The notes below the pieces were generated by a model. The model worked only from the letters and a program-made list of their open reading frames with translations, had not been told where the DNA came from and ran no database searches. A program made the position numbers and the translations under genes. 58,284 bases of DNA from positions 1 through 58,284 of the forward strand of contig JADHWK010000012.1 in NCBI GenBank assembly GCA_016783505.1, given 5' to 3'. Source of the DNA: Candidatus Zhuqueibacterota bacterium (GTDB lineage Bacteria > BS750m-G25). Below, one piece after another: positions 91 to 15,640 of the stretch; positions within the stretch are counted from its first letter, which is position 1; each line of letters opens with the position of its first letter.

Positions 91-951
91 ATGGAATCGG
101 ATGTTATTATAGATACTATTCCAAGAATTCTGGAGAAGCATGATGGGAGTCGGGGGGGGCTCATCTCAATGCTTCAGGACATCCAGGCTAAGTATGGCTA
201 TCTTCCTGTAGATGCGCTAAAGATAATGGCTGAAAGGACGGGTCGTTCTCTGGTTGACATATACGGGGTGGCAACCTTCTACAAGTCCTTCAGCCTGACC
301 CCTCGGGGCAGGCACCTTGCTTCGGTCTGTCTGGGCACGGCCTGCCACGTCCGCGGCGCACCTTTCATCGCTGAGGAGTTCGAGAGACAGCTGGGCGTCA
401 GTGCCGGCGGGACAACTTCGGATAAGGAATTCACGCTGGAGACAGTGAACTGCCTGGGTGCCTGTGCGCTGGGGCCAATCGTTGTCATAGATGGCCATTA
501 TTTTTCAAACGTTAAGACCGTAAAGGTAAAGCAAATACTGAAGAAAGCCCGCGCTGGGCTCGACAAGGTCGAAGTCAAGGCGGACAAGCGAATCTTCCCC
601 GTTGAGGTCAGCTGTCCCCACTGCAACCACAGCCTGATGGACCCGAGCCATCTTGTTGATGGTTACCCATCAATCCGGGTGACGGTATCTTTCGGGCGCA
701 AGCACGGCTGGCTCAGGTTATCCTCACTGTACGGCAGCTACAATATCGAATCAGAGTACGAGATCCCTATGGATACCATAGTTCACAATTTCTGTCCCCA
801 TTGCCATGCGGAGCTTGTTCGGGCCTCAAGCTGCCCGGAGTGCGGTGCGCCGATGGTTCCGATGATCGTTCGCGGGGGGGGCATGGTGGAGATCTGCTCG
901 CGCCGCGGGTGCAAGAGTCATAGGTTGGACCTGAACGGCGTAAATTTTTAA
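91..951 (+). CDS. nuoE: NuoE/HydC-like [2Fe-2S] diaphorase subunit with C-terminal Cys-rich (Zn-ribbon-like) extension
   Basis: GVATFY, CLGTACHVRG and NCLGACALGP NuoE motifs; extra ~120 aa tail with CPHC..CPHC..CPEC..C..C. Confidence 0.85.
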   Translation: MESDVIIDTIPRILEKHDGSRGGLISMLQDIQAKYGYLPVDALKIMAERTGRSLVDIYGVATFYKSFSLTPRGRHLASVCLGTACHVRGAPFIAEEFERQLGVSAGGTTSDKEFTLETVNCLGACALGPIVVIDGHYFSNVKTVKVKQILKKARAGLDKVEVKADKRIFPVEVSCPHCNHSLMDPSHLVDGYPSIRVTVSFGRKHGWLRLSSLYGSYNIESEYEIPMDTIVHNFCPHCHAELVRASSCPECGAPMVPMIVRGGGMVEICSRRGCKSHRLDLNGVNF

Positions 952-958
952 CTGAACA

Positions 959-2809
959 ATGAAAAGACTAAAATCTATAGATGATTTCAAGGCACTTCAG
1001 GGGCTAATAATTGCTGACCGGGACCCCAGTATTTCCACCATCGTTATTCCGGCGGGGACCTGCGGGCAGGCGAGCGGTGCCAATGATCTCATGCGCATAA
1101 CGAAGCGTGAGCTTCTGGCCAAGGGACTGACCGATAAAATTCATCTGCGCATCACCGGCTGCCATGGATTTTGTGAGATGGAACCGTCGGTACTCATCGA
1201 ACCCCAGGGAACCTTCTACCCGAAAGTAAGCATTGAGGATATGGTGCGGATCGTCGAGGCCATTGAAAAAGGGGAGGTTCTTGAAGATTTGTTCTTCGTA
1301 GACCCGGAAACCGGGGTGGCGGTGGAAAAGCAAGACGACATTCCTTTCTTCAAAAAGCAGGTTAGGACCATCCTGGCCCGCAACGAGAGAGTTGACCCGA
1401 TTCGTATTCATAATTACATTGAGAGCGGCGGTTATTCGGCCTTGGCTGGGGTGCTTACGAATGGTAAACCCAAATGGGTGGTGGAGCAGGTCAAGTCGTC
1501 CGGGCTGCGCGGCCGCGGGGGGGCTGGTTTCTCCACTGGCCTGAAGTGGGAGATGCTGGCGGGGCAATCGAATGGGCATGGCAAATTCCTCGTGTGTAAT
1601 GCAGACGAGGGCGATCCCGGTGCCTATATGGACCGCAGCGTGCTCGAGGGCAACCCGCACTCAATCATCGAGGGAATGATCATAGGTGCCTATGGGACTG
1701 GAGCGACGGAGGGGGTGGTTTACGTCCGCAACGAGTATCCGCTGGCTATCAAGCACCTGGTCATCGCCCTCGGTCAAGCGCGTGGTCTGGGGCTCCTGAG
1801 TGATGACATCCTGGGAACCGGATTTTCCTTCGACATCAAGATCGTGAGGGGGGCTGGTGCGTTTGTGTGCGGTGAGGAAACGGCGTTGATCAGGTCCATT
1901 GAAGGAAAGATGGGCGAGCCGCGCCAAAGACCCCCTTTTCCCGTGCAGAAAGGTATAGATGGTAGGCCTACGGCGATTAACAACGTGGAAACCTGGGCCA
2001 ACATTCCCATCATCATCGGGGATGGCGCCCAGCAGTTTGCGAAGATCGGAACGAAAGGGAACTCCGGCACCAAGATATTCAGCCTGGTCGGAAAGATAAA
2101 GAACACCGGCTTGGTTGAGGTGCCAATGGGCATCACCATCGGCGAGATCGTCTATGACATCGGCGGCGGTCCAGTGGACAAGGCGAAGATCAAGGCGGTG
2201 CAGACGGGGGGCCCCTCCGGCGGCTGCATCCCGGCTCAGAAGTTTGACCTGCCCATTGACTACGACAGCCTGATCGAGGCGGGATCAATCATGGGTTCCG
2301 GCGGCATGATCGTCATGGACGAGAACACCTGTATGGTTGATGTCGCCAAATACTTCATGAACTTCCTGAAGGATGAATCCTGCGGCAAGTGTCTCACCTG
2401 CCGCAAAGGCACGCAGCGGATGTACGAGATCCTCGACGACATATCAAAGGGGCAAGCGACGCTCGAACACTTAGAGCTTCTTGAAGAACTAGCGGAAGTA
2501 GTGAAGGACACCACGATGTGCGGCCTGGGGCAGACGGCGCCGAACCCCGTTCTATCCACGATACGGTACTTTCATGATGAGTACATCGAACACATCAAGA
2601 ACAAGCGGTGCCCGGCGGGCGTCTGCAAGGAACTCATCACCTACTTCATCAACGAAAACTGTACGGGCTGCATGGTCTGCCTGCGGGATTGCCCGGAGGG
2701 GGCCATAACCGGCGAGAAAAAGGAATTACACGTCATTGACCCCAGCAAGTGTATTAAGTGCGGGGTTTGCAAGAGTGTCTGCAAGTTCGATGCCGTGGAC
2801 GTTAATTAG
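959..2809 (+). CDS. nuoF: NuoF/HydB-like FMN/NAD-binding diaphorase subunit (616 aa) with N-terminal 2Fe-2S and C-terminal 2[4Fe-4S] domains
   Basis: GLRGRGGAGF, CNADEGDPGAYMDRS, GAGAFVCGEET, GGPSGG, ESCGKCLTCR..CGLG, two C-terminal CxxCxxCxxxC motifs. Confidence 0.92.
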   Translation: MKRLKSIDDFKALQGLIIADRDPSISTIVIPAGTCGQASGANDLMRITKRELLAKGLTDKIHLRITGCHGFCEMEPSVLIEPQGTFYPKVSIEDMVRIVEAIEKGEVLEDLFFVDPETGVAVEKQDDIPFFKKQVRTILARNERVDPIRIHNYIESGGYSALAGVLTNGKPKWVVEQVKSSGLRGRGGAGFSTGLKWEMLAGQSNGHGKFLVCNADEGDPGAYMDRSVLEGNPHSIIEGMIIGAYGTGATEGVVYVRNEYPLAIKHLVIALGQARGLGLLSDDILGTGFSFDIKIVRGAGAFVCGEETALIRSIEGKMGEPRQRPPFPVQKGIDGRPTAINNVETWANIPIIIGDGAQQFAKIGTKGNSGTKIFSLVGKIKNTGLVEVPMGITIGEIVYDIGGGPVDKAKIKAVQTGGPSGGCIPAQKFDLPIDYDSLIEAGSIMGSGGMIVMDENTCMVDVAKYFMNFLKDESCGKCLTCRKGTQRMYEILDDISKGQATLEHLELLEELAEVVKDTTMCGLGQTAPNPVLSTIRYFHDEYIEHIKNKRCPAGVCKELITYFINENCTGCMVCLRDCPEGAITGEKKELHVIDPSKCIKCGVCKSVCKFDAVDVN

Positions 2810-2840
2810 CGGTTTGGATTGGAAACAAGGTCAGGATACA

Positions 2841-3518
2841 ATGATCAATCTTACCATCAATAGCTTGAATGTTTCGGTAGAGGAAGGCACAACCCTGTTA
2901 GAAGCGGCAAGATTTCTGGGATTTCATATCCCCACCCTGTGCTACATGGATGGGCTTTCGCCCTACGGGGCCTGCCGACTGTGTGTGGTGGAGATCGGGG
3001 AGGGTCCCAAAGCCAAACTGGTCTCATCCTGCACCTATCCTGCTGAGATGGGACTAAATGTACGGACGGCATCGTCGCGTGTTCGCCGGGCCCGTAAGAT
3101 GATCCTGGAGCTCTTATTAGCCTCATGCCCGCAGTCAAAGACCATCCAGGACCTGGCTGCGGCCCACGATGTACGCCAGCAGCGCTTCAAGCAGGAATAC
3201 GAGGACTGCATCCTCTGCGGTCTGTGCGTGCGAATGTGCGAGGAGCAGATGATGGCCAAGGCCATCGGCTTTCGGGGGCGTGGGGAGAACCGAAGTATTG
3301 GCACCCCGTTCGACATCACCTCGGATGTCTGTCGGCAATGCGGCGGTTGCATGTATGTTTGTCCTGCCTGTCAGCTCAGGTGTACATATACCGAGCCGGA
3401 AAAGGCCGTCTGCGGTGGCTGTGCGAACCTGAGCCCGCCCTGCCTCCAAAAGGAACAGTTTGACGATATGATGTGCTACATGGATCCCTGTGTAGCTTGT
3501 GAGATAAAGAAAGATTGA
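2841..3518 (+). CDS. Short NuoG/HydA N-terminus-like Fe-S protein (no catalytic domain)
   Basis: IPTLC..GACRLCVVE..SSC 2Fe-2S motif, CILCGLCVRMC, CRQCGGCMYVCP; start moved to ATG 2841 (MINLTIN) after AAGG/AGGA. Confidence 0.85.
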   Translation: MINLTINSLNVSVEEGTTLLEAARFLGFHIPTLCYMDGLSPYGACRLCVVEIGEGPKAKLVSSCTYPAEMGLNVRTASSRVRRARKMILELLLASCPQSKTIQDLAAAHDVRQQRFKQEYEDCILCGLCVRMCEEQMMAKAIGFRGRGENRSIGTPFDITSDVCRQCGGCMYVCPACQLRCTYTEPEKAVCGGCANLSPPCLQKEQFDDMMCYMDPCVACEIKKD

Positions 3519-3536
3519 AGAAAGGAGTATAAAACC

Positions 3537-5120
3537 ATGTCATTCTCGAGAGTAAATACTTCAGCGGCCACCCTTACCAAAAATAGGACCGAAGGTTCGG
3601 TAACGCCAATATCGGGTATGTGTGTAACCTGTGTGGACGGTTGCATTGGCATGTGCGAGATCGGCAAGTCAGCTTACCGGGGCCACGAGGTGATCTACCC
3701 GCAGCCGTTTGGGGTTATTACCACTGCTGCCGAAAAGGTATATCCTGTTGACTATTCACATTTCAATATCATGGGTACCGCCGTGGGCGCCCATGGCGTC
3801 AAGGCTGACAGCGATAAGGCCATCTTTCCGGCCGTGAAGCTTGAGGTTGCCTTCGGGCACGATAGGGGGATCAGGTTCCGTTATCCATGGGTTATCCCCG
3901 GTATTGGCTCCACCGACATTGCCAAGAACAACTGGGAAGGGTTGGCCATAGGGTCGGCGCTGGCGGGTACCGGTCTGACCATCGGTGAGAATGTGGTCGG
4001 TATGGACCCCGAAGCTGAGATAAAGAGAGGTCGGGTGGTGGATACGGTGGATTTGAAGCGTCGGGTGAAACTCTATAAGGATTACCAGCGTGACGGTTAT
4101 GGCGCCATCATCGTGCAGGCCAACATCGAGGATACCCGTCTGGGCGTACAGGAGTATGCCATCGAAAAACTCGGTGTTGAATGCGTGGAACTAAAGTGGG
4201 GCCAGGGCGCGAAGGACATCGGTGGTGAAGTCAAGATAAAAAACCTGAAGAAGGCCCAGATGTTGTATGATCGGGGCTACATAGTGATGCCCGACCCAAC
4301 CAATCCGGATGTGATCAAGGCATTCGAGCGGGGGACGTTCAAGGAGTTTGAGCGACATTCACGTATAGGTATGGTTACTGAAGAATCTTTTGCAAAACGG
4401 GTTGAAGAGCTGCGTAAAGCCGGTGCTAAATATATCTTCCTCAAGACCGGGGCTTATCGCCCGGCTGACCTGGCTCGGGCCATCCTGTTTGCATCCAAGT
4501 ACAAACTGGATCTTCTCACCGTTGATGGTGCCGGTGGAGGAACGGGCATGAGTCCCTGGCGCATGATGAATGAGTGGGGAGTGCCGCCGGTGGAACTCCA
4601 CTCCCTACTGTATCAATATGCAAAGCGTCTTGCTGACAAAGGAGAAAACGTGCCAGCATTGGCGTTGGCTGGTGGATTCACCTTCGAGGATCAAATCTTC
4701 AAAGGTCTGGCTCTGGGTGCCCCATTTGTGAAACTCATAGGAATGGCCCGGGCTCCGATCGCAGCCGCAATGGTAGGCAAGACGATCGGGATGGCGATCA
4801 AAAACCATCAAGTTCCTGTGTATATCGAGCGCTTCGGTAATTCGAAGGATGAGATTTTTGTGACCGCAGGTTCGCTGCGCAAGGAATTGGGCGACTCAGA
4901 ATTCGAGATAATACCAACCGGTGCCATCGGTCTGTATACCTATTATGAACGGCTGGCTCAGGGTCTACGCCAGCTCATGTGCGGCAGTCGGAAGTTTACA
5001 CTGGAGCACATATCACGTGATGATATAGCGACTTTGACCAGGGAAGCAGAAGAAATCAGCGGCATCAAATACATTATGAATCTGGATCGAGAAAAGGTGG
5101 ATCAGATTCTTGAGGGATGA
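3537..5120 (+). CDS. Stand-alone FMN-binding glutamate synthase family protein
   Basis: ELKWGQGAKDIGGE, TVDGAGGGTG, ALAGG, ALALGA-like FMN-barrel motifs; no amidotransferase domain; SD AAGGAG. Confidence 0.85.
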   Translation: MSFSRVNTSAATLTKNRTEGSVTPISGMCVTCVDGCIGMCEIGKSAYRGHEVIYPQPFGVITTAAEKVYPVDYSHFNIMGTAVGAHGVKADSDKAIFPAVKLEVAFGHDRGIRFRYPWVIPGIGSTDIAKNNWEGLAIGSALAGTGLTIGENVVGMDPEAEIKRGRVVDTVDLKRRVKLYKDYQRDGYGAIIVQANIEDTRLGVQEYAIEKLGVECVELKWGQGAKDIGGEVKIKNLKKAQMLYDRGYIVMPDPTNPDVIKAFERGTFKEFERHSRIGMVTEESFAKRVEELRKAGAKYIFLKTGAYRPADLARAILFASKYKLDLLTVDGAGGGTGMSPWRMMNEWGVPPVELHSLLYQYAKRLADKGENVPALALAGGFTFEDQIFKGLALGAPFVKLIGMARAPIAAAMVGKTIGMAIKNHQVPVYIERFGNSKDEIFVTAGSLRKELGDSEFEIIPTGAIGLYTYYERLAQGLRQLMCGSRKFTLEHISRDDIATLTREAEEISGIKYIMNLDREKVDQILEG

Positions 5121-5166: not shown

Positions 5167-5190
5167 GAGGGGTGGCACCGGCCACCCCTC
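5167..5190. terminator. GC-rich hairpin downstream of the nuoEFG-gltB-like operon
   Basis: Perfect 10 bp stem GAGGGGTGGC-accg-GCCACCCCTC; poor U-tract on + strand. Confidence 0.55.
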
Positions 5191-5244: not shown

Positions 5245-7032
5245 ATGTTAAATTTAAATAAAATTTTATCATTTTTTTATGCGGGGCGGCGATTGCAGAC
5301 CATTTCCAGAAATTATACTCAAATTTACCGAAGGCTGAGATTAACCCTCTTTTTCCTTCTGATGGCGGTATTCATTTTTGCGCTGGTGTTTATGACCTTT
5401 CTTGTCCTGAACAACTCTCAGAATATAATGACCGAGAAGGTAAAAGAAAACCTCTCCGGCATAGCCCTGAATAAGGCCATAGCCATTGAAAATTGGCTGG
5501 CTGAGAGGATATCGGACGCCAAGGTGCTGACGGGGATGGTTGATGTTCGCAAGATAGTTAAGAACTTGATTGATACCCGCATCAGTGAGTATTCCAAGCG
5601 TAACCAAGGTGCGATCATTCGGGATTTGTTTACCCTGATGATTGAAAAATATGGGTGTTATGAAGAGATCTTTATCCTGGGGTCGGGTGGAGAACTGCTG
5701 GTCAGCTCTGGGGACGGAAATGGTCCTCGGGACTACCGGAAATTGTGGAATGATACCCCGAAGACCGGGGTTGAGATTACGGACATTTATCGGTCAGACA
5801 TTTATGATAAACCGATGATGCGGGTTTCTGCCCCCATCTATGATCTCGATGGATTCCTGATTGGGCTTTTGTTCGCGATGGTAAAAACGGACGGGATTAA
5901 GGACATCGTTAGCCAAATTGATCTGGGCGAAACGGGGGAAGCTTATCTTATAAATCAAGAGGGTATCTTCTTAACTGATTCCAAATTTGAACCGGGTTAT
6001 ATTCTATCAAAGAGGATTCATCCAGACGGAGTAGAGGGTTATCTAGGGGGAAAAGAATGGGTTGAAACCTATCAAGATTATCGCCAACGTGAGGTTTTAG
6101 GGGCTCACAGAAAAATCCCTGGGTTAAATTGGTTTCTGATCGCAGAACAGGATGCCCAGGAAGCCTTCAGAGAGGTCCACAGCCTTAGAATGAAAATCTA
6201 TCTGATCAGCATAGTGATTGTTATCCTGACGATTATTACCTCGGGTGAATTAGCCCGTAGGGTTTTCCGTCGTTTGAAGTCCGCTGACAGGGAGCTTGAA
6301 AACAAAAACGAAGAAGTTTTACGCTCTGGAAAGCTGGCCGCTGTGGGCGAAATGGCCGCGGGGATAGCCCATGAGGTAAATAACCCCCTGACTACCATTA
6401 AAACGCTAATTCAGTCTATCCTTGCCGATGCTAATGTTGATGATTTGATCCACAAAGATTTGGGAATTATTCAGAATGAGATTGACCGGATTAACCGCTT
6501 AATGTTAAGGTTTCTCCAATTTGCCCATCCCAATCCCCCGGAATTTGAAACCACTGAGATCAATCAGATTATCAGCCGCATCGTGTTATTACTCGAACAT
6601 CAGATGACCAAAGGGGGAATCCATTTTAAAGCGGCTTACGATAGATCCATTCCCAAATTAATGGTGGACCCTCACTTGTTTGGCCAGGCCTTTATGAATC
6701 TCCTGCTGAATGCCATACAAGCTACTCCGCGTGAAGGGGAAATCGAGGTGGCCACCGGGATAAATGGACAATACAAATTCGGGTCCACCAAGACCATAAA
6801 AGTAACCATTAAAGACACCGGTTGTGGAATACCCGATGGAATAAAGGATAGAGTCTTCGAGCCTTTTTTTACGACCAAACCTTCCGGAACAGGGTTGGGG
6901 CTTTCTATCTCTAAGAGTATTATTGAAAAACATGGAGGTAGTGTCGCCTTCGGTAGAAACGAGCGGGGGGGAACGATTTTTATCATTGAAATGCCCGTAG
7001 AGGAATTCGATGGAAAAGATTCTGATCGTTGA
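5245..7032 (+). CDS. Sensor histidine kinase with extracytoplasmic dCache domain
   Basis: Two TM segments around Cache-like region (GETGEAYLIN, YQDYRQREV); H-box AHEVNNPL, N-box NLLLNA, DTGCGI, FFTTK, GTGLGL. Confidence 0.9.
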   Translation: MLNLNKILSFFYAGRRLQTISRNYTQIYRRLRLTLFFLLMAVFIFALVFMTFLVLNNSQNIMTEKVKENLSGIALNKAIAIENWLAERISDAKVLTGMVDVRKIVKNLIDTRISEYSKRNQGAIIRDLFTLMIEKYGCYEEIFILGSGGELLVSSGDGNGPRDYRKLWNDTPKTGVEITDIYRSDIYDKPMMRVSAPIYDLDGFLIGLLFAMVKTDGIKDIVSQIDLGETGEAYLINQEGIFLTDSKFEPGYILSKRIHPDGVEGYLGGKEWVETYQDYRQREVLGAHRKIPGLNWFLIAEQDAQEAFREVHSLRMKIYLISIVIVILTIITSGELARRVFRRLKSADRELENKNEEVLRSGKLAAVGEMAAGIAHEVNNPLTTIKTLIQSILADANVDDLIHKDLGIIQNEIDRINRLMLRFLQFAHPNPPEFETTEINQIISRIVLLLEHQMTKGGIHFKAAYDRSIPKLMVDPHLFGQAFMNLLLNAIQATPREGEIEVATGINGQYKFGSTKTIKVTIKDTGCGIPDGIKDRVFEPFFTTKPSGTGLGLSISKSIIEKHGGSVAFGRNERGGTIFIIEMPVEEFDGKDSDR

Positions 7033-8434
7033 TGATGACGAGAATATCCGCTATTCCTTCAGGCGGATGTTGAAAGATAAAGATTACCGGATTCTGGAGG
7101 TATCCACAGGGGAGGAGGCTATTAGGATAATATCAGAGGAATCTATAGATTTGGTCATCATGGATGTTCGACTCCCAGGAATGAGCGGGATAGAAGCCTT
7201 AAGACAAATTAAGGAAGGCCGTTCAAAATTACTTATTATCGTAATCACGGCCTATGGAACTACTGATCTGGCTATTGAAGCCATGAAGCGGGGGGCTTTT
7301 GATTATCTTCTGAAGCCCTTCGACATTGAAGAGATGAAGGATCTTATTGAGAAGGGATTGAGGATAAACCGGTTAATGAGGGACAGGGTCACCTTTCCGC
7401 TGGATGGTCAAAAAAAGGCAACCGGGGAGATGCCCATTATCGGGAAGAGTCGGAAGATGCAGGAGGTGTTCAAGACCATCGGACAGGTGGCGCAAAGCGA
7501 TGTGACCGTGTTGATTGAAGGGGAAAGCGGGACTGGAAAGGAATTAATAGCCCGGGCTATTTATCATCACAGCAACCTCGCCGATGGTCCGTTCTTGGCG
7601 GTTAATTGTGCAGCCATTCCGGAAACCCTGTTAGAGAGCGAACTCTTCGGCTACGAAAAGGGGGCCTTCACCGGGGCCACTTCTCTGAGGATTGGGAAAT
7701 TTGAACAGTGCCACCGGGGGACTATTTTCTTGGATGAAATAGGGGATATGAGCCCTTTGACCCAGACCAAAGTCCTGCGGGTACTTCAAGAACGTAAATT
7801 CGAACGGGTGGGTGGAAATAAAACGATTGAAGTGGATGTTAGGGTTATCGCAGCTACAAATCAAAATCTGTTGAAGGCTATCAAGGAAGGCAGATTTCGA
7901 GAGGATCTGTATTATCGGTTGAACACAGTGAACATCAAGCTCCCTTCCTTACGGGAGAGAAAAGAGGACATTTCAGAACTGGCCCAATTCTTCCTGGGAA
8001 AATACAATCAAGAATTTTGTCGAAACGTATATAGTATTTCAAAAGCGGCGTTAAGAAGGTTAAAAGCCTATTCCTGGCCGGGAAATGTGCGTGAATTGGA
8101 AAATGTCATTAAACGCTCGGTGTTGATGGCCAAGGGCGATACCCTCCTCCCCGACGATATAATGCTGGAGGAAGGGGATGTACCGTTGGTCGAAGAGACC
8201 CAGATTTCATCCCCAAAAGAGACTTTAGAATCACTAATTAAGAAATTTACTTATCTAGGGGATAAAGGTTCAAGGGGCCCTCTACTCCCTACCATAGAAA
8301 GACTTCTTATCATCCATGCTTTACGAGAGACCAACGGGAATCAGGTCAGGGCGGCAAAGCTACTGGGGATCAATCGGCATACCCTGAAGTATCGCATAAA
8401 AAAATACGGTATCAAAATGGATTTTAATATCTGA
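7010..8434 (+). CDS. Sigma-54-dependent response regulator (NtrC/AtoC family)
   Basis: REC domain, GESGTGKE, ESELFG, GAFTGA, WPGNVREL, Fis-type HTH; overlaps kinase stop. Confidence 0.95.
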   Translation: MEKILIVDDDENIRYSFRRMLKDKDYRILEVSTGEEAIRIISEESIDLVIMDVRLPGMSGIEALRQIKEGRSKLLIIVITAYGTTDLAIEAMKRGAFDYLLKPFDIEEMKDLIEKGLRINRLMRDRVTFPLDGQKKATGEMPIIGKSRKMQEVFKTIGQVAQSDVTVLIEGESGTGKELIARAIYHHSNLADGPFLAVNCAAIPETLLESELFGYEKGAFTGATSLRIGKFEQCHRGTIFLDEIGDMSPLTQTKVLRVLQERKFERVGGNKTIEVDVRVIAATNQNLLKAIKEGRFREDLYYRLNTVNIKLPSLRERKEDISELAQFFLGKYNQEFCRNVYSISKAALRRLKAYSWPGNVRELENVIKRSVLMAKGDTLLPDDIMLEEGDVPLVEETQISSPKETLESLIKKFTYLGDKGSRGPLLPTIERLLIIHALRETNGNQVRAAKLLGINRHTLKYRIKKYGIKMDFNI

Positions 8435-8527
8435 CCCCTTTTTCACCCCGAAAACTTCTCCTACCAATTGCCCACCTTTTAACCACCCCTGGATTTCCTT
8501 AATTACTAAGATGCAGCTTGGTACCAT

Positions 8528-9568
8528 TTATCGGGTAGCGATCGTCCCGAATGCAAGCCCGCTCAGGGTGGCCATTATCACAACCAATGCAATATACGTC
8601 AGGGTTTTCTTCGTTCCCAGAACACTTCTGATGGCCAGCATATTGGGAAGACTAAGGGAGGGGCCAGCTAAGATAAGGGCCAAGGCGGGTCCCTTTCCCA
8701 TCCCCAGCTCCATCAGCGCCTTGATAATGGGGACTTCGGTCAAGGTGGCAAAATACATTAGCGACCCGAACAGGGAAGCAATGAGGTTAGCCCTGAGGGA
8801 GTTGCCGCCCACCCAGCCGGTGATGAGGTCTTGGGGCAGAACCACCCGGAGCATCCCGGCCATAAATACCCCACCCAAAAGCCAGGGGATGATCTGTTTT
8901 ACGAAGGTCCAGGTGGAGGTGAGCCAGTCTATGCGGTCAGATCTCCTGAACCAGAGAATTAGGATTAATGTCAGCATGCCCAGTAAGCCTACGGCGATTC
9001 CCCAGCGTTTGGCGGCTCCGAAGATAAGAATGCCCACCAGGACCAGGAAGAAGAGAAGCCGCTTGGAGGCCGGGATGTCATCCCCCTCAGCAAACCCCAC
9101 CGTCAGCTCTTCGGGGGTACGTTCCTTTTCCTCCTGGCCGAACAGGAGGGTCATGATCAGGCCGATGATGACGGAAAAAAGGATGGCTCCCCCGGCCCTG
9201 GCGGCCCCGATGTCATATCCCAACAGGCGGGCCGAGTAGACGACAGCCAGGATGTTAATTGCGGGTCCCGAATAGAGGAAGGCCACCGCTGGGCCCAATC
9301 CGGCCCCCCGTTTATAGATGCCGGAAAACAGGGGCAGGACAGTGCAGGAGCAGACGGTGAGAATAGACCCGGAAACCGAGGCCACCGAATAGGAGAGCAC
9401 CTTTTTGGCCTGGGCTCCGAAATATTTTATCACCGCCCCTTGGGAGATGAAGACCGAAATGGCCCCGGCGATGAAGAAGGCGGGAACCAGGCAGGCCAAA
9501 ACGTGGGCGGAGAGGTAGTCCAGCAGGGCTGAAAATCCACCTTTGAAGAGATCAAGAATCAGGTTCAT
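8528..9568 (-). CDS. ArsP/DUF318-family permease
   Basis: HVLACLVPAFFIAGAI, TVCSCTVLPLF, SGPAINI, YFATLTEVPI; ATG 9568 overlaps upstream stop (ATGA). Confidence 0.88.
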   Translation of the reverse strand: MNLILDLFKGGFSALLDYLSAHVLACLVPAFFIAGAISVFISQGAVIKYFGAQAKKVLSYSVASVSGSILTVCSCTVLPLFSGIYKRGAGLGPAVAFLYSGPAINILAVVYSARLLGYDIGAARAGGAILFSVIIGLIMTLLFGQEEKERTPEELTVGFAEGDDIPASKRLLFFLVLVGILIFGAAKRWGIAVGLLGMLTLILILWFRRSDRIDWLTSTWTFVKQIIPWLLGGVFMAGMLRVVLPQDLITGWVGGNSLRANLIASLFGSLMYFATLTEVPIIKALMELGMGKGPALALILAGPSLSLPNMLAIRSVLGTKKTLTYIALVVIMATLSGLAFGTIATR

Positions 9569-9810
9569 ATCTGTGCTGCCGCCTCCTGAAACCACCGCTT
9601 CAGCGTGGATGGGGAGGGGATCTTGCCCTGGGAAAAGAGCTTCCCGTTGATTAACAGCCCCGGGGTCATCATCACCCACTTTGAAATTTCATTTCGGTCG
9701 GTGACTAGCCGAACATCAGCGTCTATCCCCAGTTCAGCCAGGGCGTCAACGGTCAGTTGCTCCAGCTTGTGGCAGTTGGCACAGCCCGGTCCTAAAATTT
9801 TGATCTCCAT
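9565..9810 (-). CDS. Small thioredoxin-like redox protein (MTH895/TM0996 type)
   Basis: IKILGPGCANC, MTPGLLING; typical ars-cluster member. Confidence 0.88.
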   Translation of the reverse strand: MEIKILGPGCANCHKLEQLTVDALAELGIDADVRLVTDRNEISKWVMMTPGLLINGKLFSQGKIPSPSTLKRWFQEAAAQI

Positions 9811-10143: not shown

Positions 10144-10638
10144 TTACTTCGGGGAAGCGTCCCTGATCCATTCCCTCAGTTTCTCCTTAACCGGCACACG
10201 GCCGGAGGAGACCAGCTTTCGGTTAATCACCAGGCCCGGGAGGGGCACGACGCCGTGGCCGGCGATCTCGGTGGTGTCAGTGACATGAATCAGGTCAGCC
10301 CTGACATTAAGTTCCACCAAGACAGCCTGTATGTCCCGGAAGAGTTTATCGCAGTTGGGACAGCCGGGGCCCAGCACCCGGATGGTCAGCCCCTCCGCTT
10401 CTTCATCCACCGATTCCCCCAGGAACCGCCGGTATTCCCGGAACAGGGCTTTTTTATACGCTTTTTCCAAACTGGTAGGGACGTAATTGCCCTTTTTCAC
10501 CCCGTCCAGTAACCTTTGCTTTAAATTGTCCTCGCTGGGTGGATTTTCTGAATGAATGATCTCCAAGATGTGGTCAAGGCCGATGATGCCGACGGGAGAC
10601 CCAGCTATTGAGATCTGTTTGATCTTTCCTGTAGACAT
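10144..10638 (-). CDS. Thioredoxin-like protein (MTH895-type C-terminal domain with N-terminal extension)
   Basis: IRVLGPGCPNC, PGLVIN..SSGRVP. Confidence 0.82.
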   Translation of the reverse strand: MSTGKIKQISIAGSPVGIIGLDHILEIIHSENPPSEDNLKQRLLDGVKKGNYVPTSLEKAYKKALFREYRRFLGESVDEEAEGLTIRVLGPGCPNCDKLFRDIQAVLVELNVRADLIHVTDTTEIAGHGVVPLPGLVINRKLVSSGRVPVKEKLREWIRDASPK

Positions 10639-10640
10639 TA

Positions 10641-10817
10641 TTATTTATCCATCTCATTTAAAAAACTGAGAATCTTTTCCCGAATAATATCCCTGATTTT
10701 TCGAAAAAAAGCCAGCTTTTGCTCTTTAGTTCCCCTTATTCAAATCATACTGGTTGGGCAGGGAAATAGTGTATGATCTGGAATTTTACGATGGAATCAC
10801 CAGATTTTGTGACTCAT
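10641..10817 (-). pseudogene. arsC: Remnant of LMW-PTP-type arsenate reductase (C-terminal fragment only)
   Basis: Minus strand 10739-10641 reads IRGTKEQKLAFFRKIRDIIREKILSFLNEMDK*, matching the ArsC C-terminus pattern; ATG 10817 follows the acr3 stop but CxxNSCRS is absent and two TGA intervene. Confidence 0.65.
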
Positions 10818-12005
10818 TTAGTTTATCCTCAGGGCGCTTTCTCCGGGAAACCAACCCCGGGTCCTCAGACAGATCTTCACCAGCATCAGCATTACCGGCA
10901 CTTCGATCAATACCCCTACCACCGTGGCCAGGGCCGCTCCAGAGTTGAGGCCGAATAACATCACTGCAGTGGCAATAGCTACCTCAAAATGGTTACTTGC
11001 CCCAATCATTGCTGAAGGAGCTGCATCCTGATAGCGCAATTTTATCAACTTAGCTAATCCATAAGTCATCCAAAAGATCAGGTTTGTTTGAATAAAGAGC
11101 GGAATTGCTATCCAAAGTATGGTAAGTGGTTGGGTCAGGATAGTATCTCCTTTAAAGGAAAAGAGTAAAATGAGAGTAAACAACAGAGCAATAATTGACA
11201 CTGGTGTTAGCAAATGTAAAAACTTTTCCTTGAACCATTTCTCGCCTTTTGCCTTTATTATCCATTTTCTGGAAAAATATCCGGCAACCAAAGGTAGTGC
11301 GACATAGATACCTATAGAAAGTAATAATGCCTCCCAGGGAACAGGCAAACGCCCAACCCCAAGGAGAAATCCGCCTAACGGTCCATATAAAAACAACATC
11401 GTTAAAGAATTAATCGCCACCATAACAAGGGTATGTCCATCGTTGCCTTTTGCCAGGTATCCCCACAAAAGCACCATAGCGGTGCAGGGGGCAATTCCCA
11501 GGAGGATACATCCAGCAAGATAACTCCTCCAGAGTGGAATCTCAAACATTTTCAATCCGTTATGCAGCACAACTGTCCCTGCACCTTGGACTGTTCCCAC
11601 GGCCCAGTCAGCGCCAGGAGGAAGTTTTACCAAATCAGTTGCATCAATACCAATGAATTTTTTGAAGAGAATTCCTAGAAAAAAAAGTGATATGGCATAC
11701 ATAGTGAACGGTTTAACTGCCCAATTGGCGAATAGAGTTAAAGCCACTGGTTTGGGAGTTTTCCCTGCTTTGACAATGCTGGCAAAATCTATCTTAACCA
11801 TAATCGGATACATCATAGAAAATAAACAGACTGCAATTGGAATGGAAACCACCGGCGCTTCCTTAACATAAATTGCCAGCCCATCCAGAAATTTCGCCAT
11901 ATTCGGTGCGACTTTACCAATAATAATGCCCGCCCCAATGCATAACAAAACCCAGACAGTAAGATACTTCTCAAAAACATTCAGTTTTTTTTCTTCTTTA
12001 ACTAT
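10818..12005 (-). CDS. acr3: ACR3-family arsenite efflux transporter
   Basis: [57 protein letters not shown]; codon after SD AAGGAG is ATA (12005). Confidence 0.92.
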
Positions 12006-12017
12006 GACTGATCTCCT

Positions 12018-12188
12018 TTATGCTATCCAAATTATATATATTCCACCAAGAATGACAAGAACCCCACAATTTTTTTTAAGAATTATCGCTCCCTTAGATT
12101 TTTCGTTCCAGTTTAAAAAATGCTGAACAACTTCTGTAAAAGTCCCTGCAAAAACAATTACGGAGCAATGACCAACATGGTAAAGGGC
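12018..12188 (-). pseudogene. ccdA: C-terminal remnant of a CcdA-type cytochrome c biogenesis/thiol-disulfide membrane protein
   Basis: Reads ALYHVGHCSVIVFAGTFTEVVQHFLNWNEKSKGAIILKKNCGVLVILGGIYIIWIA* with in-frame TGA upstream and no start codon; stop overlaps acr3 SD. Confidence 0.65.
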
Positions 12189-12252
12189 TCAACTGCCCAA
12201 TTAATAAAAATCCCCAAAGGGGCTAAATTCTAATTGGAGCGGCCTTGGTTTT

Positions 12253-12621
12253 TCATTGAACTTTCTGAGGCATCGGAATGCTGACGCATTTTCCGCCCGC
12301 GATGGCCTTATTCAGGGCGGTTCGATCCTTTTCAAAATGAGGATGCTGAGCAAAGGCGGTTTGTAGATATTCTTTAAGAAGGGAGAAAGATTCCTGGTCC
12401 AGTTTGGCCAGGGTATAAATGATCCACAGCCCCTCCCTTCGGTCTTCCACCAGCCCCGAGTTTTTCAGGTAAGCCAGGTGCCGGGAGACCTTGGGCTGAC
12501 AATAACCCAGGACACGCTGGATGTCACAAACGCAGATCTCCCCTGCGGTCATGATGAGGTTCAGTATCCTGAGCCGGGCTTCATCGGAGAGGGCTTTAAA
12601 AACCTGGGCTAATTCTTTCAT
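12253..12621 (-). CDS. arsR: ArsR/SmtB family metalloregulator
   Basis: FKALSDEARLRIL, EICVCDI, KVSRHLAYLK. Confidence 0.92.
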   Translation of the reverse strand: MKELAQVFKALSDEARLRILNLIMTAGEICVCDIQRVLGYCQPKVSRHLAYLKNSGLVEDRREGLWIIYTLAKLDQESFSLLKEYLQTAFAQHPHFEKDRTALNKAIAGGKCVSIPMPQKVQ

Positions 12622-12631
12622 CTCTGTAACC

Positions 12632-12692
12632 TATATTTACTAATATGAATATATGCATAAACAAATATAATGAATAAAAAAATAAAAGTCAA
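12632..12692 (-). promoter_or_regulatory. Sigma-70 promoter and probable ArsR operator
   Basis: Minus strand TTGACT-N17-TATATT (12692-12664); imperfect inverted repeat TATATTTA-N6-TGAATATA (12632-12653) just downstream. Confidence 0.6.
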
Positions 12693-12750
12693 GAGAAATT
12701 CTAAAAGGCGTGTATTCCAAGCGATTAGCTAGGAGCCAGTTTACCCTAAA

Positions 12751-13161
12751 TTATGATTCTATCTTCATTTCATAGCTAAATTCACAGACTTGCCTTAACA
12801 TAATAGATACGGCGCAATATTTTTCTTGGGAAAGATTAATCGCTTTTAATAGTTTATCCTCTGGAAGATTTTTCCCTTTAAAAATATAAATCAGTCTGAT
12901 TTCAGTAAATACCTTTGGATGTTCCCCAGCCAATTCGCTTTCAACCCTGATTTTTAGATTGAAGTTTTCCACCCTCATCTTTTGCAGAATAGAGACGACG
13001 TCCATCCCGGTGCATCCGGCTAATGCGGTTAATAGCAGCCCTTTGGGGCGGGGGCCTAAATCTTTCCCACCGAATTCAGGATTAGCATCGAGCGTTATTT
13101 CATGTCCATCCTGAAGGGCTTCAAATGCCATTCCCCCCTTCCAATTCAGTTCAGTTAACAT
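12751..13161 (-). CDS. OsmC/Ohr family (YhfA-like) protein
   Basis: GPRPKGLLLTALAGCTGMDV, PKVFTEI, EKYCAVS. Confidence 0.9.
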   Translation of the reverse strand: MLTELNWKGGMAFEALQDGHEITLDANPEFGGKDLGPRPKGLLLTALAGCTGMDVVSILQKMRVENFNLKIRVESELAGEHPKVFTEIRLIYIFKGKNLPEDKLLKAINLSQEKYCAVSIMLRQVCEFSYEMKIES

Positions 13162-13269
13162 GATCCTCTCCTTAATAGATTTGTAAGATGAACATTATTG
13201 ATTTTCAAGTTAAGAAACCACAGCCTAAAATTCAAGAGAAAATTATGTTATCGGGAATAATTTTTTCCG

Positions 13270-13298
13270 TTGACATACACTTAAAAAATGTTTAAATT
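13270..13298 (+). promoter_or_regulatory. Sigma-70 promoter of ECF operon
   Basis: TTGACA-N17-TAAATT. Confidence 0.55.
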
Positions 13299-13311
13299 GT
13301 TTTGGTTGTGA

Positions 13312-13340
13312 TTCAAACAATTGGCGAAGTTATTCGTATC
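13312..13340 (+). promoter_or_regulatory. Putative autoregulatory ECF promoter
   Basis: TTCAAAC-N16-CGTATC, SigW-like; near-identical motif at 16789-16817. Confidence 0.55.
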
Positions 13341-13357
13341 ATAAACGAGACCTCCTG

Positions 13358-13927
13358 ATGTCGAAACGGGAGATAGACCCCGGGGTCATACGCCGGGCCC
13401 AGGATGGGGATAGGCTCGCTTTCCGAGAACTGTTCGAGCACTATCGGGAGGATGTGGCCCGGGTGGCCTATCAGATGGTGGGGAATTGGGAGGATGCCCG
13501 GGATATCGCCCAGGAGGTCTTCATAAAGATTTTTCGCTCCCTTAACCAATTCGATCCCCGGAGGCGGTTCTTTACCTGGCTGTATCGGCTCACCGTGAAC
13601 GCCAGTATTGACTTCCTGCGAAGGAGGAAGCGGCATCCCGAATATAGTTCCCTGGAGTCAGCCGGCAATGGGCCCCCGACGGTGGGGGAAGCGGCCGGAT
13701 CTTTAGAGAGTCGGGAGATGATGGATATTTTTAAAGGACTGGCTCAGAAGCTGAACCCCAAACAACGATCGGCCTTCGTACTCTGTGACCTGGAAGGGTT
13801 TTCCCCGGCCGAGGCGGCGGGGATCCTAAGAGTTCCCCGGGCGACCCTGCGTTGGCAGCTTCACCAGGCCCGAAAACGATTAAAAGATGGGATCATCAAA
13901 AAATATCCTGAATATTTGCCGGGTTAA
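13358..13927 (+). CDS. ECF sigma-70 family sigma factor
   Basis: AFRELFEHY, DARDIAQEVFIK, FFTWLYRLTVN (region 2); region 4 HTH. Confidence 0.93.
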   Translation: MSKREIDPGVIRRAQDGDRLAFRELFEHYREDVARVAYQMVGNWEDARDIAQEVFIKIFRSLNQFDPRRRFFTWLYRLTVNASIDFLRRRKRHPEYSSLESAGNGPPTVGEAAGSLESREMMDIFKGLAQKLNPKQRSAFVLCDLEGFSPAEAAGILRVPRATLRWQLHQARKRLKDGIIKKYPEYLPG

Positions 13928-13965
13928 GCTGTAAAATTACATTAATCAGGGTGAAGGATTTTGCT

Positions 13966-14067
13966 ATGAAAATGAGAATAGTTTTAGTCATTCTGTGTCT
14001 GATTGCGTTCGGTTCTTCGGCTAAAGATCAAGCTAAAATTGTTCAATATTTTCAGGATACAAATTAG
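13966..14067 (+). CDS. Small ORF (33 aa) with signal-peptide-like N-terminus; possibly a truncated gene
   Basis: MKMRIVLVILCLIAFGSSAKDQAKIVQYFQDTN*, SD GAAGGA upstream. Confidence 0.3.
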   Translation: MKMRIVLVILCLIAFGSSAKDQAKIVQYFQDTN

Positions 14068-14112
14068 GTCATTACGAATAAATGATGATGACAAAATTAC
14101 CGTATAAATTGT

Positions 14113-15024
14113 ATGGGGTTTTCTAAGAAAATGAAGCATCCTCACAGACCTAAAATCAGGGATTCCTTAGATCATCTACATGAATATAGAAGGGTTGAGA
14201 GGAACAAGCTGAAGCTTACCATGGCCATCACTGGGAGTGTAATGGTCATTGAAGTAATTGGTGGCATTCTAACCAATAGTTTAGCCCTACTCAGTGATGC
14301 CGGTCACATGTTTACCCATTTTTTTGCCTTAGGGATTAGTTTTGGGGCAATTATTATAGCTTCCAAAGATCCTTGTCATCATAGAACATTTGGGTTTTAT
14401 CGGGTAGAAATCCTTGCGGCCCTTTTTAACAGTCTCTTCCTGTTTGCGGTGACCGCATACATACTTTACGAAGGAATCGAACGACTTATTCATCCTGAAT
14501 CCATTTTAGGACTTCAGATGTTCCTTGTAGCGGTAGTCGGTCTTATTGTAAATGTAATAAGTGTGTTAATTTTGCGGGGAAGCACAAGGGATGATCTCAA
14601 TGTCAGAGGGGCTTTTCTCCATATGTTAGCAGATACGGTTTCCTCTGTCGTAATTGTAATTGGGGCAATTATCCTTTATTTTACTAATTGGTATATTATT
14701 GATCCTTTGTTAGGCATTGGTATTTCATTGGTAATTTTTATGTGGGCGTGGGGTCTTTTTAGGGATGCTATTAATATTCTATTAGAAGCGGCACCTAGAG
14801 GAGTTAATATAGATGTTGTAAGCGCTGAACTTAAAAAAGAAGTCCCCGAGATTCAAGGTATCCACGATATGCACATCTGGGTGATTACCTCAAATATGTA
14901 TTCATTGACAGCGCATATAGGCATTGGCGAAAACCGGAGGAAATCAAAAGAAGTTCTTAAGAGAATAAATAGATTGTTGAATGAAAAATATGACATTGAA
15001 CATACTACAATTCAGTTTGATTAA
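14113..15024 (+). CDS. czcD: Cation diffusion facilitator (CzcD/ZitB-like Zn/Co/Cd exporter)
   Basis: SLALLSDAGHM, TFGFYRVEILAALFN, NVRGAFLHMLAD, HDMHIW, EHTTIQ; start could be 14131. Confidence 0.9.
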   Translation: MGFSKKMKHPHRPKIRDSLDHLHEYRRVERNKLKLTMAITGSVMVIEVIGGILTNSLALLSDAGHMFTHFFALGISFGAIIIASKDPCHHRTFGFYRVEILAALFNSLFLFAVTAYILYEGIERLIHPESILGLQMFLVAVVGLIVNVISVLILRGSTRDDLNVRGAFLHMLADTVSSVVIVIGAIILYFTNWYIIDPLLGIGISLVIFMWAWGLFRDAINILLEAAPRGVNIDVVSAELKKEVPEIQGIHDMHIWVITSNMYSLTAHIGIGENRRKSKEVLKRINRLLNEKYDIEHTTIQFD

Positions 15025-15042
15025 ATTGAGGGGGTAACAACA

Positions 15043-15630
15043 ATGGGTTGTCGAAAAGGTAGGCGATTGATCCAGCGTCATCTGGACGGTGACCTGAAGC
15101 CCGAGCGGAAAGCTTGGCTAAAGGCCCATCTGAAGGATTGTCCCGCTTGCAATCGGGAATTCCGACAACTGTCGGGCGCCGTTCAGTTAATGAGGAAAGC
15201 AGCTTCAATCCGGCAGACGCCGGATTTCGGGGAGGCCCTCTGGGCGGGGGTTTTGGATGGGCTGGAAAAGGAATCCCTTGGGGAGCGATGGAAGAGGCGC
15301 TGGTGGGAGTTCTGGGGTGAAATTCCCATTCCCTCCCTCCGGTTCATACCCATCCCCGCCCTGGCGGGTGGAATAGTGGTGTTAGCGGTTGTTCTGCTCC
15401 TTTCGTTGCTCCCCCGGACCGACAGGTGGGTTCCCGCTTATTCGCCCGGGGAACTGGTGATTGGGTTCCCCCAGCTCTTGGCATCGGGAACCGATGACCG
15501 AGGCTCAGTTTTGTATTACAGCTCTGGGGTAGGTGTGGAAACCCGCTATCCCCTGGAGACCCTCGACCCCGCCAAGGTCAATTACCGCCTTGTTCCGACG
15601 TCTACCATAGAGGTATTAGAATTGTTCTGA
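15043..15630 (+). CDS. Zinc-finger (zf-HC2/ZAS) anti-sigma factor, single TM
   Basis: C..HLDGDL..HLKDCPAC, one TM helix, short periplasmic tail. Confidence 0.85.
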   Translation: MGCRKGRRLIQRHLDGDLKPERKAWLKAHLKDCPACNREFRQLSGAVQLMRKAASIRQTPDFGEALWAGVLDGLEKESLGERWKRRWWEFWGEIPIPSLRFIPIPALAGGIVVLAVVLLLSLLPRTDRWVPAYSPGELVIGFPQLLASGTDDRGSVLYYSSGVGVETRYPLETLDPAKVNYRLVPTSTIEVLELF

Positions 15631-15640
15631 GGAGGGATTC

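Follow-up and report, generated by a model that had tools for sequence, protein, structure and literature searches.

Bfu enzymes form an abundant and recently recognized class of electron-bifurcating enzymes. In the main text of Schut et al. (PMC9304861), the subunit BfuB is defined by the domains IPR011538, IPR019554, IPR019575 and IPR017896, the residues of its B2 site are presented as a conserved trait of BfuB that non-bifurcating homologs lack, with the histidine kept in nearly all BfuB, and Type 2 enzymes are those in which a short BfuA is joined by one or more extra catalytic subunits for a third substrate; in that text, 17–18 of the 57 BfuB clades (clades 1–17) have no assigned third substrate, and the terms 'glutamate synthase', 'GltB' and 'GltD' do not occur. 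Here, we analyze a four-gene operon at the 5' end of a contig from Candidatus Zhuqueibacterota bacterium (BS750m-G25; assembly GCA_016783505.1, contig JADHWK010000012.1, 58,284 nucleotides), the whole of which is referred to below as the window. Three of the genes encode a Bfu core and the fourth encodes a TIM barrel protein of the flavin mononucleotide (FMN) type. By its composition, the set appears to be a Type 2 Bfu enzyme and a new, widespread catalytic variant of the known Bfu family, to which it would add a non-metal, flavin-based catalytic module. We give about an even chance to the reading that the four genes encode a single soluble iron-sulfur flavoenzyme of the Bfu family, the third couple of which is most likely amino acid/2-imino acid/2-oxo acid plus ammonia, with glutamate/2-oxoglutarate + NH4+ as the leading candidate.

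The Bfu core and the fourth protein

The four open reading frames (ORFs) lie on the + strand at 91–951, 959–2809, 2841–3518 and 3537–5120, with spacers of 7, 31 and 18 nt, so that the tight packing and common orientation asserted by an earlier, sequence-only reading of this DNA are borne out; the contig begins 90 nt before the first gene. The ORF listed for the third gene starts at TTG 2736, but we prefer ATG 2841 (225 amino acids (aa)) because this start is common to all 11 aligned homologs. The hairpin that had been said to close the gene set is real as well: a perfect, GC-rich 10-bp stem at 5167–5190 (+ strand, read directly from the sequence), with arms GAGGGGTGGC (5167–5176) and GCCACCCCTC (5181–5190) and the loop ACCG, 47 nt past the stop of the fourth gene. 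No T-run or U-tract follows it on the + strand, and it is not among the predictions of the terminator scan.

The first gene (91–951, +) encodes a BfuC/NuoE-like subunit of 286 aa with the thioredoxin-like [2Fe-2S] domain characteristic of BfuC (IPR002023) at residues 12–153 (Pfam 2Fe-2S_thioredx, PF01257, E 1e-44), in which C80, C85, C121 and C125 are invariant among 12 aligned sequences. The best solved relatives, the HydC/BfuC chains 8a6t_C, 7t2r_C and 7p5h_C, cover residues 7–152 only. The C-terminal extension of about 130 residues (approximately residues 155–286, window 553–951) is specific to this family and finds no match among the solved chains in a PDB search, HydC/BfuC included; C175, C178, C235, C238, C248, C251, C269, C274 and H277, in CxxC-type pairs, are invariant in the same 12 sequences. 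The AlphaFold2 (AF2) model of NuoE with this extension reaches a pLDDT (predicted local distance difference test) of 63, too low for a fold search.

The second gene (959–2809, +) encodes a BfuB/NuoF-like subunit of 616 aa in the short, canonical form. Complex1_51K (PF01512), NADH_4Fe-4S (PF10589) and two Fer4 domains (PF00037) score above the Pfam cut-off, and SLBB (PF10531) falls below it (24.5 bits against 27). Taking these Pfam families to correspond to the InterPro entries named above, we find the domain set of BfuB represented, namely the Nuo51 FMN, SLBB, NADH 4Fe-4S and ferredoxin-type domains. Residues 28–613 align with subunit B of the NiFe-Bfu hydrogenase, 7t2r_B, the closest solved BfuB (E 1.5e-222, 743 bits), followed by 9bov_B, HydB 7q4v_B, NfnB 9n5u_B and HydB 8a6t_B; complex I NuoF and the beta subunits of formate dehydrogenase reach half the score and leave both ends uncovered. 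The full-length match to a solved BfuB and the two Fer4 domains uphold the C-terminal 2[4Fe-4S] domain of the sequence-only reading, and the GAYMD, GGPSG and ENTC/IEH/KRC/GVC motifs that it listed are all present. The last set comprises C458, H545, C551 and C556, which match C438, H525, C531 and C536 of 7t2r_B, that is, the histidine and cysteine ligands of the B2 site. Ser496 occupies the position of C476 of 7t2r_B, where about two thirds of BfuB have Thr according to the main text of PMC9304861.

The third gene (2841–3518, +) encodes a small BfuA/HoxU-like Fe-S subunit of 225 aa. Pfam recognizes Fer2_4 and Fer4_7 and no catalytic domain, in agreement with the absence of an H-cluster, NiFe or Mo/W domain noted by the sequence-only reading. 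The [2Fe-2S] and 4Fe-4S domains typical of BfuA are apparent in an N-terminal cysteine set (C34, C45, C48, C64) and in two CxxCxxCxxxC motifs (C123–C133 and C164–C174); the tail that follows (residues 177–225, window 3369–3518) has invariant C177, C181, C191, C194, C201, C212, C217 and C220, eight cysteines that would suffice for one or two additional clusters. Among solved chains, it is closest to 9mqx_A, a 'NuoG-like' protein of 247 aa (E 7e-35), on which the aligned part stops at residue 194. In the alignment of 12 sequences, mean column identity is 87%. With the hallmarks present and the best solved relatives of all three proteins being Bfu subunits, the assignment of the trio to the HydABC/BfuABC type stands.

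The fourth gene (3537–5120, +) encodes the putative catalytic subunit, a protein of 527 aa that is currently annotated merely as 'FMN-binding glutamate synthase family protein'. Its sole Pfam match is to Glu_synthase (PF01645), with residues 279–400 aligned to profile positions 185–303 of 369 at 56 bits (cut-off 20.4); there is no NCBIfam match, and single-sequence and profile searches against PDB sequences yield designed TIM barrels plus glutamate synthase (GltS) at E 0.19. The AF2 model (pLDDT 82.9, good except for the N-terminal 66 residues) is a TIM barrel of the FMN type. Near-invariant cysteines at the N-terminus form the motif C29-x2-C32-x3-C36-x3-C40, and the barrel has the motifs QGAK (223–226) and DGAGGGTG (330–337). 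The class II amidotransferase (PF00310), central (PF04898) and GXGXG (PF01493) domains of glutamate synthase are not detected by Pfam, and the stretch that supplies the [3Fe-4S] cysteines of GltS (C328, C334 and C339, invariant in an alignment of canonical sequences) faces a cysteine-free stretch of this family. Because these domains and ligands are missing, the FMN protein is not a glutamate synthase by family membership. Thus, of the label 'GltB-like' given by the sequence-only reading, the PF01645 match stands, but the similarity is weaker than claimed, the fold being as near to type-2 IPP isomerase (IDI-2) and the alpha-hydroxy-acid oxidases as to GltS. A second PF01645 match in the source genome (C10), considered as a paralog, was rejected as an IMPDH-like protein. 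A complex prediction for the small BfuA with the FMN protein scored 0.00, which is no verdict and counts neither for nor against binding.

The association of the four genes, on which the sequence-only reading depended, is strictly conserved. Among the related loci (designated by L numbers), which are the best 80 of 594 stretches with a relative of the FMN protein in a collection of species-representative genomes, all 61 that extend 4.8 kb or more beyond the 5' end of the FMN gene show it preceded by nuoE, nuoF and bfuA, on the same strand and in the same order. The loci span many phyla, and yet the FMN proteins are 81–86% identical among them and the small BfuA 78–91%. A search with the FMN protein returned at least 8000 candidates at E 0.001, the best 120 of which are 84–88% identical; the sources of the matches include Ignavibacteriae, Thermodesulfobacteriota, WOR-3, Planctomycetes, Zixibacteria and Acidobacteriota, and, clustered at 50% identity, the family is small (1088 clusters at E <= 0.001), few of its divergent members being full-length. 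In comparisons of the window with nine related loci, the proportion of synonymous differences (pS) is 0.72–0.87 and the nonsynonymous distance (dN) is 0.09–0.13; omega is 0.03–0.04 in the three pairs for which the synonymous distance (dS) could be computed, dS being undefined through saturation in the other six. Because synonymous sites are saturated while dN is low, the identity across phyla reflects strong purifying selection rather than recent transfer. The FMN gene is present in 86 of 201 sampled genomes from the phylum of genome G001 and in 33 of 201 from another phylum, and a phylum-level search around the source genome, in the species-representative set, returned only that genome itself. 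Overall, the gene set is widespread in uncultured anaerobes.

NuoF is the variable member of the set. Judged by gene length in the 80 loci, 14 have the short form found in the window (616 aa, with the ferredoxin-type C-terminus), 55 a long form, with roughly 1.5 kb of additional length in the nuoF region (55 of 69 classifiable loci), and 11 are too short to classify; the window is thus the canonical Bfu version and belongs to the minority. In L003, the long NuoF (1058 aa) has Fer4_20 and Pyr_redox_2 right after NADH_4Fe-4S, replacing the ferredoxin-type domain. These two domains make up a GltD/NfnB-like NAD(P)H module that, as gene length suggests, is probably shared by all 55 long-form loci; Pfam finds none in the window. 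On a tree of the NuoF core (63 rows, with 18 loci that lack a complete core or FMN gene left out), the short and long forms interleave, with at least eight changes, at least five of them forced by well-supported branches. This interleaving indicates that, at the low-potential end of BfuB, ports for ferredoxin and for pyridine nucleotides have repeatedly replaced one another.

The candidate third substrate and the proposed reaction

Our guess at the substrate comes from gene context. In 8 of the 80 loci, a tblastn search finds an ELFV-family dehydrogenase gene that is co-oriented with the operon and directly adjoins it, either upstream, between the promoter or a small cysteine-rich ORF (see below) and nuoE (L009, L021, L023 and L034), or just after the FMN gene (L014, L015, L036 and L051). 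Both short- and long-form loci are represented among the eight. The three of these neighbors that were scanned with Pfam have both ELFV domains and the size of glutamate dehydrogenase (GDH; 441–462 aa); in L023 (Scalindua), an ELFV ORF listed at 496 aa lies between the small ORF and nuoE, and in both L009 and L023 the small ORF precedes GDH inside the operon. In two further loci, the ELFV gene is farther off and on the other strand. Paralogs of the FMN protein (48–53% identity) also neighbor ELFV dehydrogenases, in L087, L100 and L102, and in L099 and L101 such paralogs have a NuoE, NuoF and BfuA of their own. RidA proteins, one of which is encoded next to a paralog (L088), hydrolyze 2-imino acids. 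These associations with ELFV, GDH and RidA genes point to the chemistry of amino acids, imino acids and oxo acids plus ammonia, with glutamate as the first candidate, and lend circumstantial support to the glutamate/2-oxoglutarate-type reaction proposed from the sequence alone. The links of the FMN protein to GltS also count in favor of the glutamate reading, namely the PF01645 match, the hhalign alignments over the FMN-phosphate half of the barrel and the QGAK motif with its Arg at +20 (see below).

Two of the paralog loci are of note in their own right. L087:6144–18694 (genome G235) contains a full short-form operon with its dCache kinase and regulator and, just upstream of these two, a second FMN paralog (51%), ahead of which lie a 105-aa ORF and an ELFV-family dehydrogenase of 373 aa. 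L088:7000–13482 (genome G340) is a separate cluster under sigma-54 control and encodes a PAS kinase, an NtrC-type regulator, a hemerythrin, a Haem_oxygenas_2-type iron enzyme, a 53% FMN paralog and the RidA-family protein.

In the proposed enzyme, NAD(H) would be oxidized or reduced at the FMN of NuoF/BfuB, the C-terminal 2x[4Fe-4S] domain of which would exchange electrons with ferredoxin, and NuoE/BfuC would supply the [2Fe-2S] switch cluster. The Fe-S chain and cysteine tail of the small BfuA would then lead to the fourth protein, to its N-terminal [4Fe-4S] cluster and its FMN, where a 2-imino acid formed from a 2-oxo acid and free ammonia could be reduced, the reverse being possible as well; ammonia would be used in the free form, with no glutamine, as in the synthase half-reaction of glutamate synthase. 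The physical complex, this electron path and the coupling to ferredoxin are inferred. The standard potential (E0') of 2-oxoglutarate + NH4+/glutamate is about -140 mV. At 10 µM ammonium and a 1:100 ratio of oxoglutarate to glutamate, we calculate that the couple would shift by about -207 mV, to about -350 mV, which would fall between NADH and ferredoxin, in the range of reversible Bfu operation. In its most specific and quite tentative version, which we think rather unlikely to hold in every part, the complex would be a reversible, ATP-independent, ammonia-dependent glutamate synthase or bifurcating GDH that confurcates NADH and reduced ferredoxin (NADPH in the long form) for the amination of 2-oxoglutarate at micromolar ammonium, where an NADH-dependent GDH cannot operate, and that in reverse would yield reduced ferredoxin from glutamate.

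Several observations weigh against the glutamate reading or against parts of the coupling scheme. The similarity of the FMN protein to GltS appears remote: in hhalign comparisons, the FMN domain of E. coli GltB and a profile built from nine canonical FMN domains are matched with probabilities of only 51–67% and E-values of 5e-5 to 1.5e-4, and the shared region is the FMN-phosphate half of the barrel. ELKWGQGAK of the FMN protein aligns with IQIKVAQGAK of E. coli GltB once the hhalign threshold is lowered, and an Arg lies 20 residues past the QGAK Lys in the FMN protein and all nine canonical GltB sequences; the match to the QGAK...R signature of GltS draws on motifs and a low-confidence alignment, and the Lys, Gln and Arg presumably hold 2-oxoglutarate in GltS. 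By Z score, the fold search (VIA-align) ranks IDI-2 (26.3, over 318 residues), mandelate dehydrogenase (25.9), lactate oxidase (25.2) and IMPDH (23.6) over GltS (6s6s_A, 20.3), which has the longest alignment (339 residues; chain residues 789–1190). ELFV/GDH genes adjoin the operon in only 10% of the loci, and not in the window. In the N-terminal, thioredoxin-like domain of NuoF, where BfuB has its B5 [2Fe-2S] cluster and to which NCBIfam 2Fe-2S ferredoxin models match weakly (residues 31–111), only three cysteines are visible (C35, C68 and C72); C11 of 7t2r_B aligns with Pro31, and the solved 9bov_B has the same single-cysteine first motif. Finally, since 55 of 69 classifiable relatives replace the ferredoxin-type domain with a GltD-like module, coupling to ferredoxin is not constant across the family.

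Genome content adds to this list. All five closed genomes that bear the operon lack GXGXG and canonical PF01645 and have GDH and glutamine synthetase, a pattern that could be taken as displacement of canonical glutamate synthase (GOGAT). In the phylum of G001, however, GXGXG is found in 0 of 201 sampled genomes, 86 with the operon and 115 without it, and the operon coexists with a canonical GltB of 1553 aa in the complete genome G208; across the phylum of G208, the negative association is weak, with canonical GltB in 3 of the 25 genomes that have a close ortholog and in 53 of the 176 that have none (Fisher p 0.09, uncorrected for relatedness). Because the control phylum lacks GXGXG regardless of the operon and G208 has both, we reject the operon as a general replacement of GOGAT. 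In the source genome, a metagenome-assembled genome that is 60% complete, glutamine synthetase was found, and GDH, canonical GltB, GATase_2 and GXGXG were not, absences that at this completeness are only a hint.

Among the alternatives, the one that survives best keeps the architecture and changes the substrate of the FMN subunit to another amino acid, an amine or imine, a 2-hydroxy or 2-oxo acid, or some other small molecule reducible by hydride transfer from FMN; we consider it unlikely but a serious contender. The Z scores of 25–26 for IDI-2 and the alpha-hydroxy-acid oxidases versus 20.3 for GltS speak for it, as does Foldseek, in which flavocytochrome b2, GltS (1ofd) and IDI-2 are tied at E ~1e-9. 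So do the RidA neighbor, which belongs to a family acting on many imines, and the 373-aa ELFV dehydrogenases beside paralogs, a size that we take to be more like that of Leu, Val or Phe dehydrogenases than of GDH. The ELFV ORFs measured beside the operon itself are, conversely, GDH-sized (441–462 aa; 496 aa in L023), the QGAK motif with Arg at +20 matches GltS, and Pfam reports PF01645 alone: there is no IMPDH match, and none to FMN_dh (PF01070) at E <= 0.001, close as the fold remains to 1huv_A (Z 25.9) and 7f20_A (Z 25.2).

It is less probable, and in our view distinctly improbable, that the complex is a non-bifurcating NAD(P)H-dependent reductase, in which NuoEF is just a diaphorase, in the manner of HoxFU or NAD-dependent formate dehydrogenase, and an internal wire is all that the ferredoxin-type domain provides. 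On the NuoF tree, the C-terminal domain has been exchanged with a GltD-like module at least five times, which fits a flexible entry port rather than an obligatory ferredoxin site; such port exchange is compatible with a low-potential partner that may be one carrier or the other, and equally so with a non-bifurcating enzyme. Against the latter, the top solved relatives are all bifurcating enzymes, with non-bifurcating NuoF and FdsB far lower, and the B2-site histidine, H545, is present, the residue that the main text of PMC9304861 reports to be absent from non-bifurcating homologs.

Two separate co-regulated enzymes with no stable contact, one an NADH:ferredoxin oxidoreductase of the BfuABC type that stands alone, the other a ferredoxin-dependent FMN/Fe-S enzyme that draws on the ferredoxin pool, are hardly probable given the invariant gene order, the 7–31-nt spacers, the co-occurrence in 61 of 61 loci, the conservation of BfuA to the same degree as the FMN protein, its invariant eight-cysteine tail, which would have no role in a stand-alone diaphorase, and the argument for single enzymes that Schut et al. 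make from such sandwiched arrangements in the main text of PMC9304861, even though eight Planctomycetota loci have orthologs of the FMN protein (60–62% identity) beside MoxR/DUF58/VWA genes with no nuoEF nearby, from which it follows that the FMN protein can work without a dedicated Bfu core.

Regulation and neighboring genes

Beyond the four genes, comparable conservation is seen only for a histidine kinase and a sigma-54 response regulator. In the window, these are a sensor histidine kinase of 595 aa with a dCache_1 domain in the periplasm (5245–7032, +; Pfam dCache_1, HisKA and HATPase_c) and an NtrC-type sigma-54-dependent response regulator of 474 aa (7010–8434, +; Response_reg, Sigma54_activat and HTH_8), the genes of which overlap by 23 nt. 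Both lie downstream of the operon, unlike in most relatives, where a histidine kinase (35 of 54 loci) and an NtrC-type sigma-54 regulator (38 of 54) are upstream. The dCache kinase of the window is a possible regulator of the operon. The dCache sensor was not used as a pointer to the ligand because none of six upstream kinase ORFs from other loci (three of them short, 296–395 aa) has dCache; one has GAF and five have no recognized sensor. What we take to be an amino-acid motif, of the RxWY type, was not seen by eye in the dCache domain of the window.

In 11 related loci, an exact sigma-54 promoter consensus precedes nuoE; it was not found in the 90 nt upstream of the first gene in the window. 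Between this promoter and nuoE, there is a small ORF with one or two repeats of the motif C-x2-C-x5-C-x(7-10)-(V/I)W-H-C-E-E-Y, which occurs in 47 of 81 sources (for example, L003:2886–3182, L005:4102–4443 and L019:2814–3095, with 44 further sources) and reaches the threshold of no family in Pfam or NCBIfam. The NuoE proteins of L009 and L012 bear one such repeat as an N-terminal fusion, which suggests that the small protein belongs to the complex. The ORF was not found in the window or in the assembled, 60% complete genome, and may sit past the end of the contig. A structured RNA in the long leader was rejected: an Rfam scan of eight related loci was empty, and the conserved leader is the small protein-coding ORF.

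The regulator gene is followed by a gene for an ArsP_1-type permease of 383 aa on the - strand (8528–9679); a 242-aa ORF without a family (8511–9239, +) that overlaps it is probably spurious. Elsewhere, L052 (Bacteroidota; 10450–15815) has a second, more distant NuoE/NuoF/NuoG-like set, 31–51% identical to that of the window, some 1 kb downstream of its operon.

Significance and comparison with known systems

Full-text literature searches, which did not cover the supplementary tables of PMC9304861 that may list such genes, found no description of a NuoEF/Bfu module with a GltB-like subunit, in line with the statement of the sequence-only reading that no characterized enzyme of this composition was known to it. 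The window adds the canonical ferredoxin-type form to the picture, and the present analysis adds the interleaving of short and long forms on the NuoF tree, the GDH/ELFV/RidA context, the negative control for GOGAT displacement and the synonymous saturation. If the substrate is glutamate/2-oxoglutarate, the enzyme would connect the central node of nitrogen metabolism directly with the pools of NADH and ferredoxin in anaerobes, and the reconstruction of nitrogen assimilation and amino-acid fermentation from metagenomes would change; if the ammonia-dependent reading is true, many anaerobic phyla would be able to assimilate ammonium by a third route, in addition to GDH and glutamine synthetase–GOGAT.

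Among the described systems, StnABC/NfnABC (Nfn-Bfu, PDB 9n5u; PMC12018979) combine a Bfu core with a GltD/NfnB-like module, a likeness shared with the long-form relatives only. In the latter, BfuB carries the GltD-like module at its C-terminus, fused in place of the ferredoxin domain, whereas in Stn/Nfn it is located on BfuA. Nfn enzymes lack a GltB-like subunit, and the window lacks a GltD-like module. Compared with the NiFe-Bfu hydrogenase HydABCSL of Acetomicrobium mobile (7t2r/7t30; main text of PMC9304861), the window retains the histidine and cysteine ligands of B2 and the ferredoxin domain; it differs in having no hydrogenase subunits, Ser at the position of C476 and no counterpart of C11 of 7t2r_B.

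With the synthase domain of GltS (PF01645; 1ofd, 1llw and 6s6s), the FMN protein shares the FMN TIM barrel, the DG(x)GGTG phosphate region and IK..QGAK with Arg at +20. It differs in the absence of the amidotransferase, central and GXGXG domains, in the match to a third of the Pfam profile, and in the four cysteines at its N-terminus in place of the [3Fe-4S] site. Another close system is the Type 2 Bfu enzyme with a short BfuA represented by 9mqx, chain A of which is the best match to the small BfuA and chains B and C of which also match NuoF and NuoE of the window. Both have BfuC, a full-length BfuB (N-terminal domain, FMN, B2 site and C-terminal 2x[4Fe-4S]) and a BfuA of about 225–250 aa without a catalytic domain. 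What sets the window apart from the 9mqx type is the partner, an FMN/[4Fe-4S] TIM barrel protein, together with the additional eight-cysteine tail of BfuA and the additional eight-cysteine extension of BfuC.

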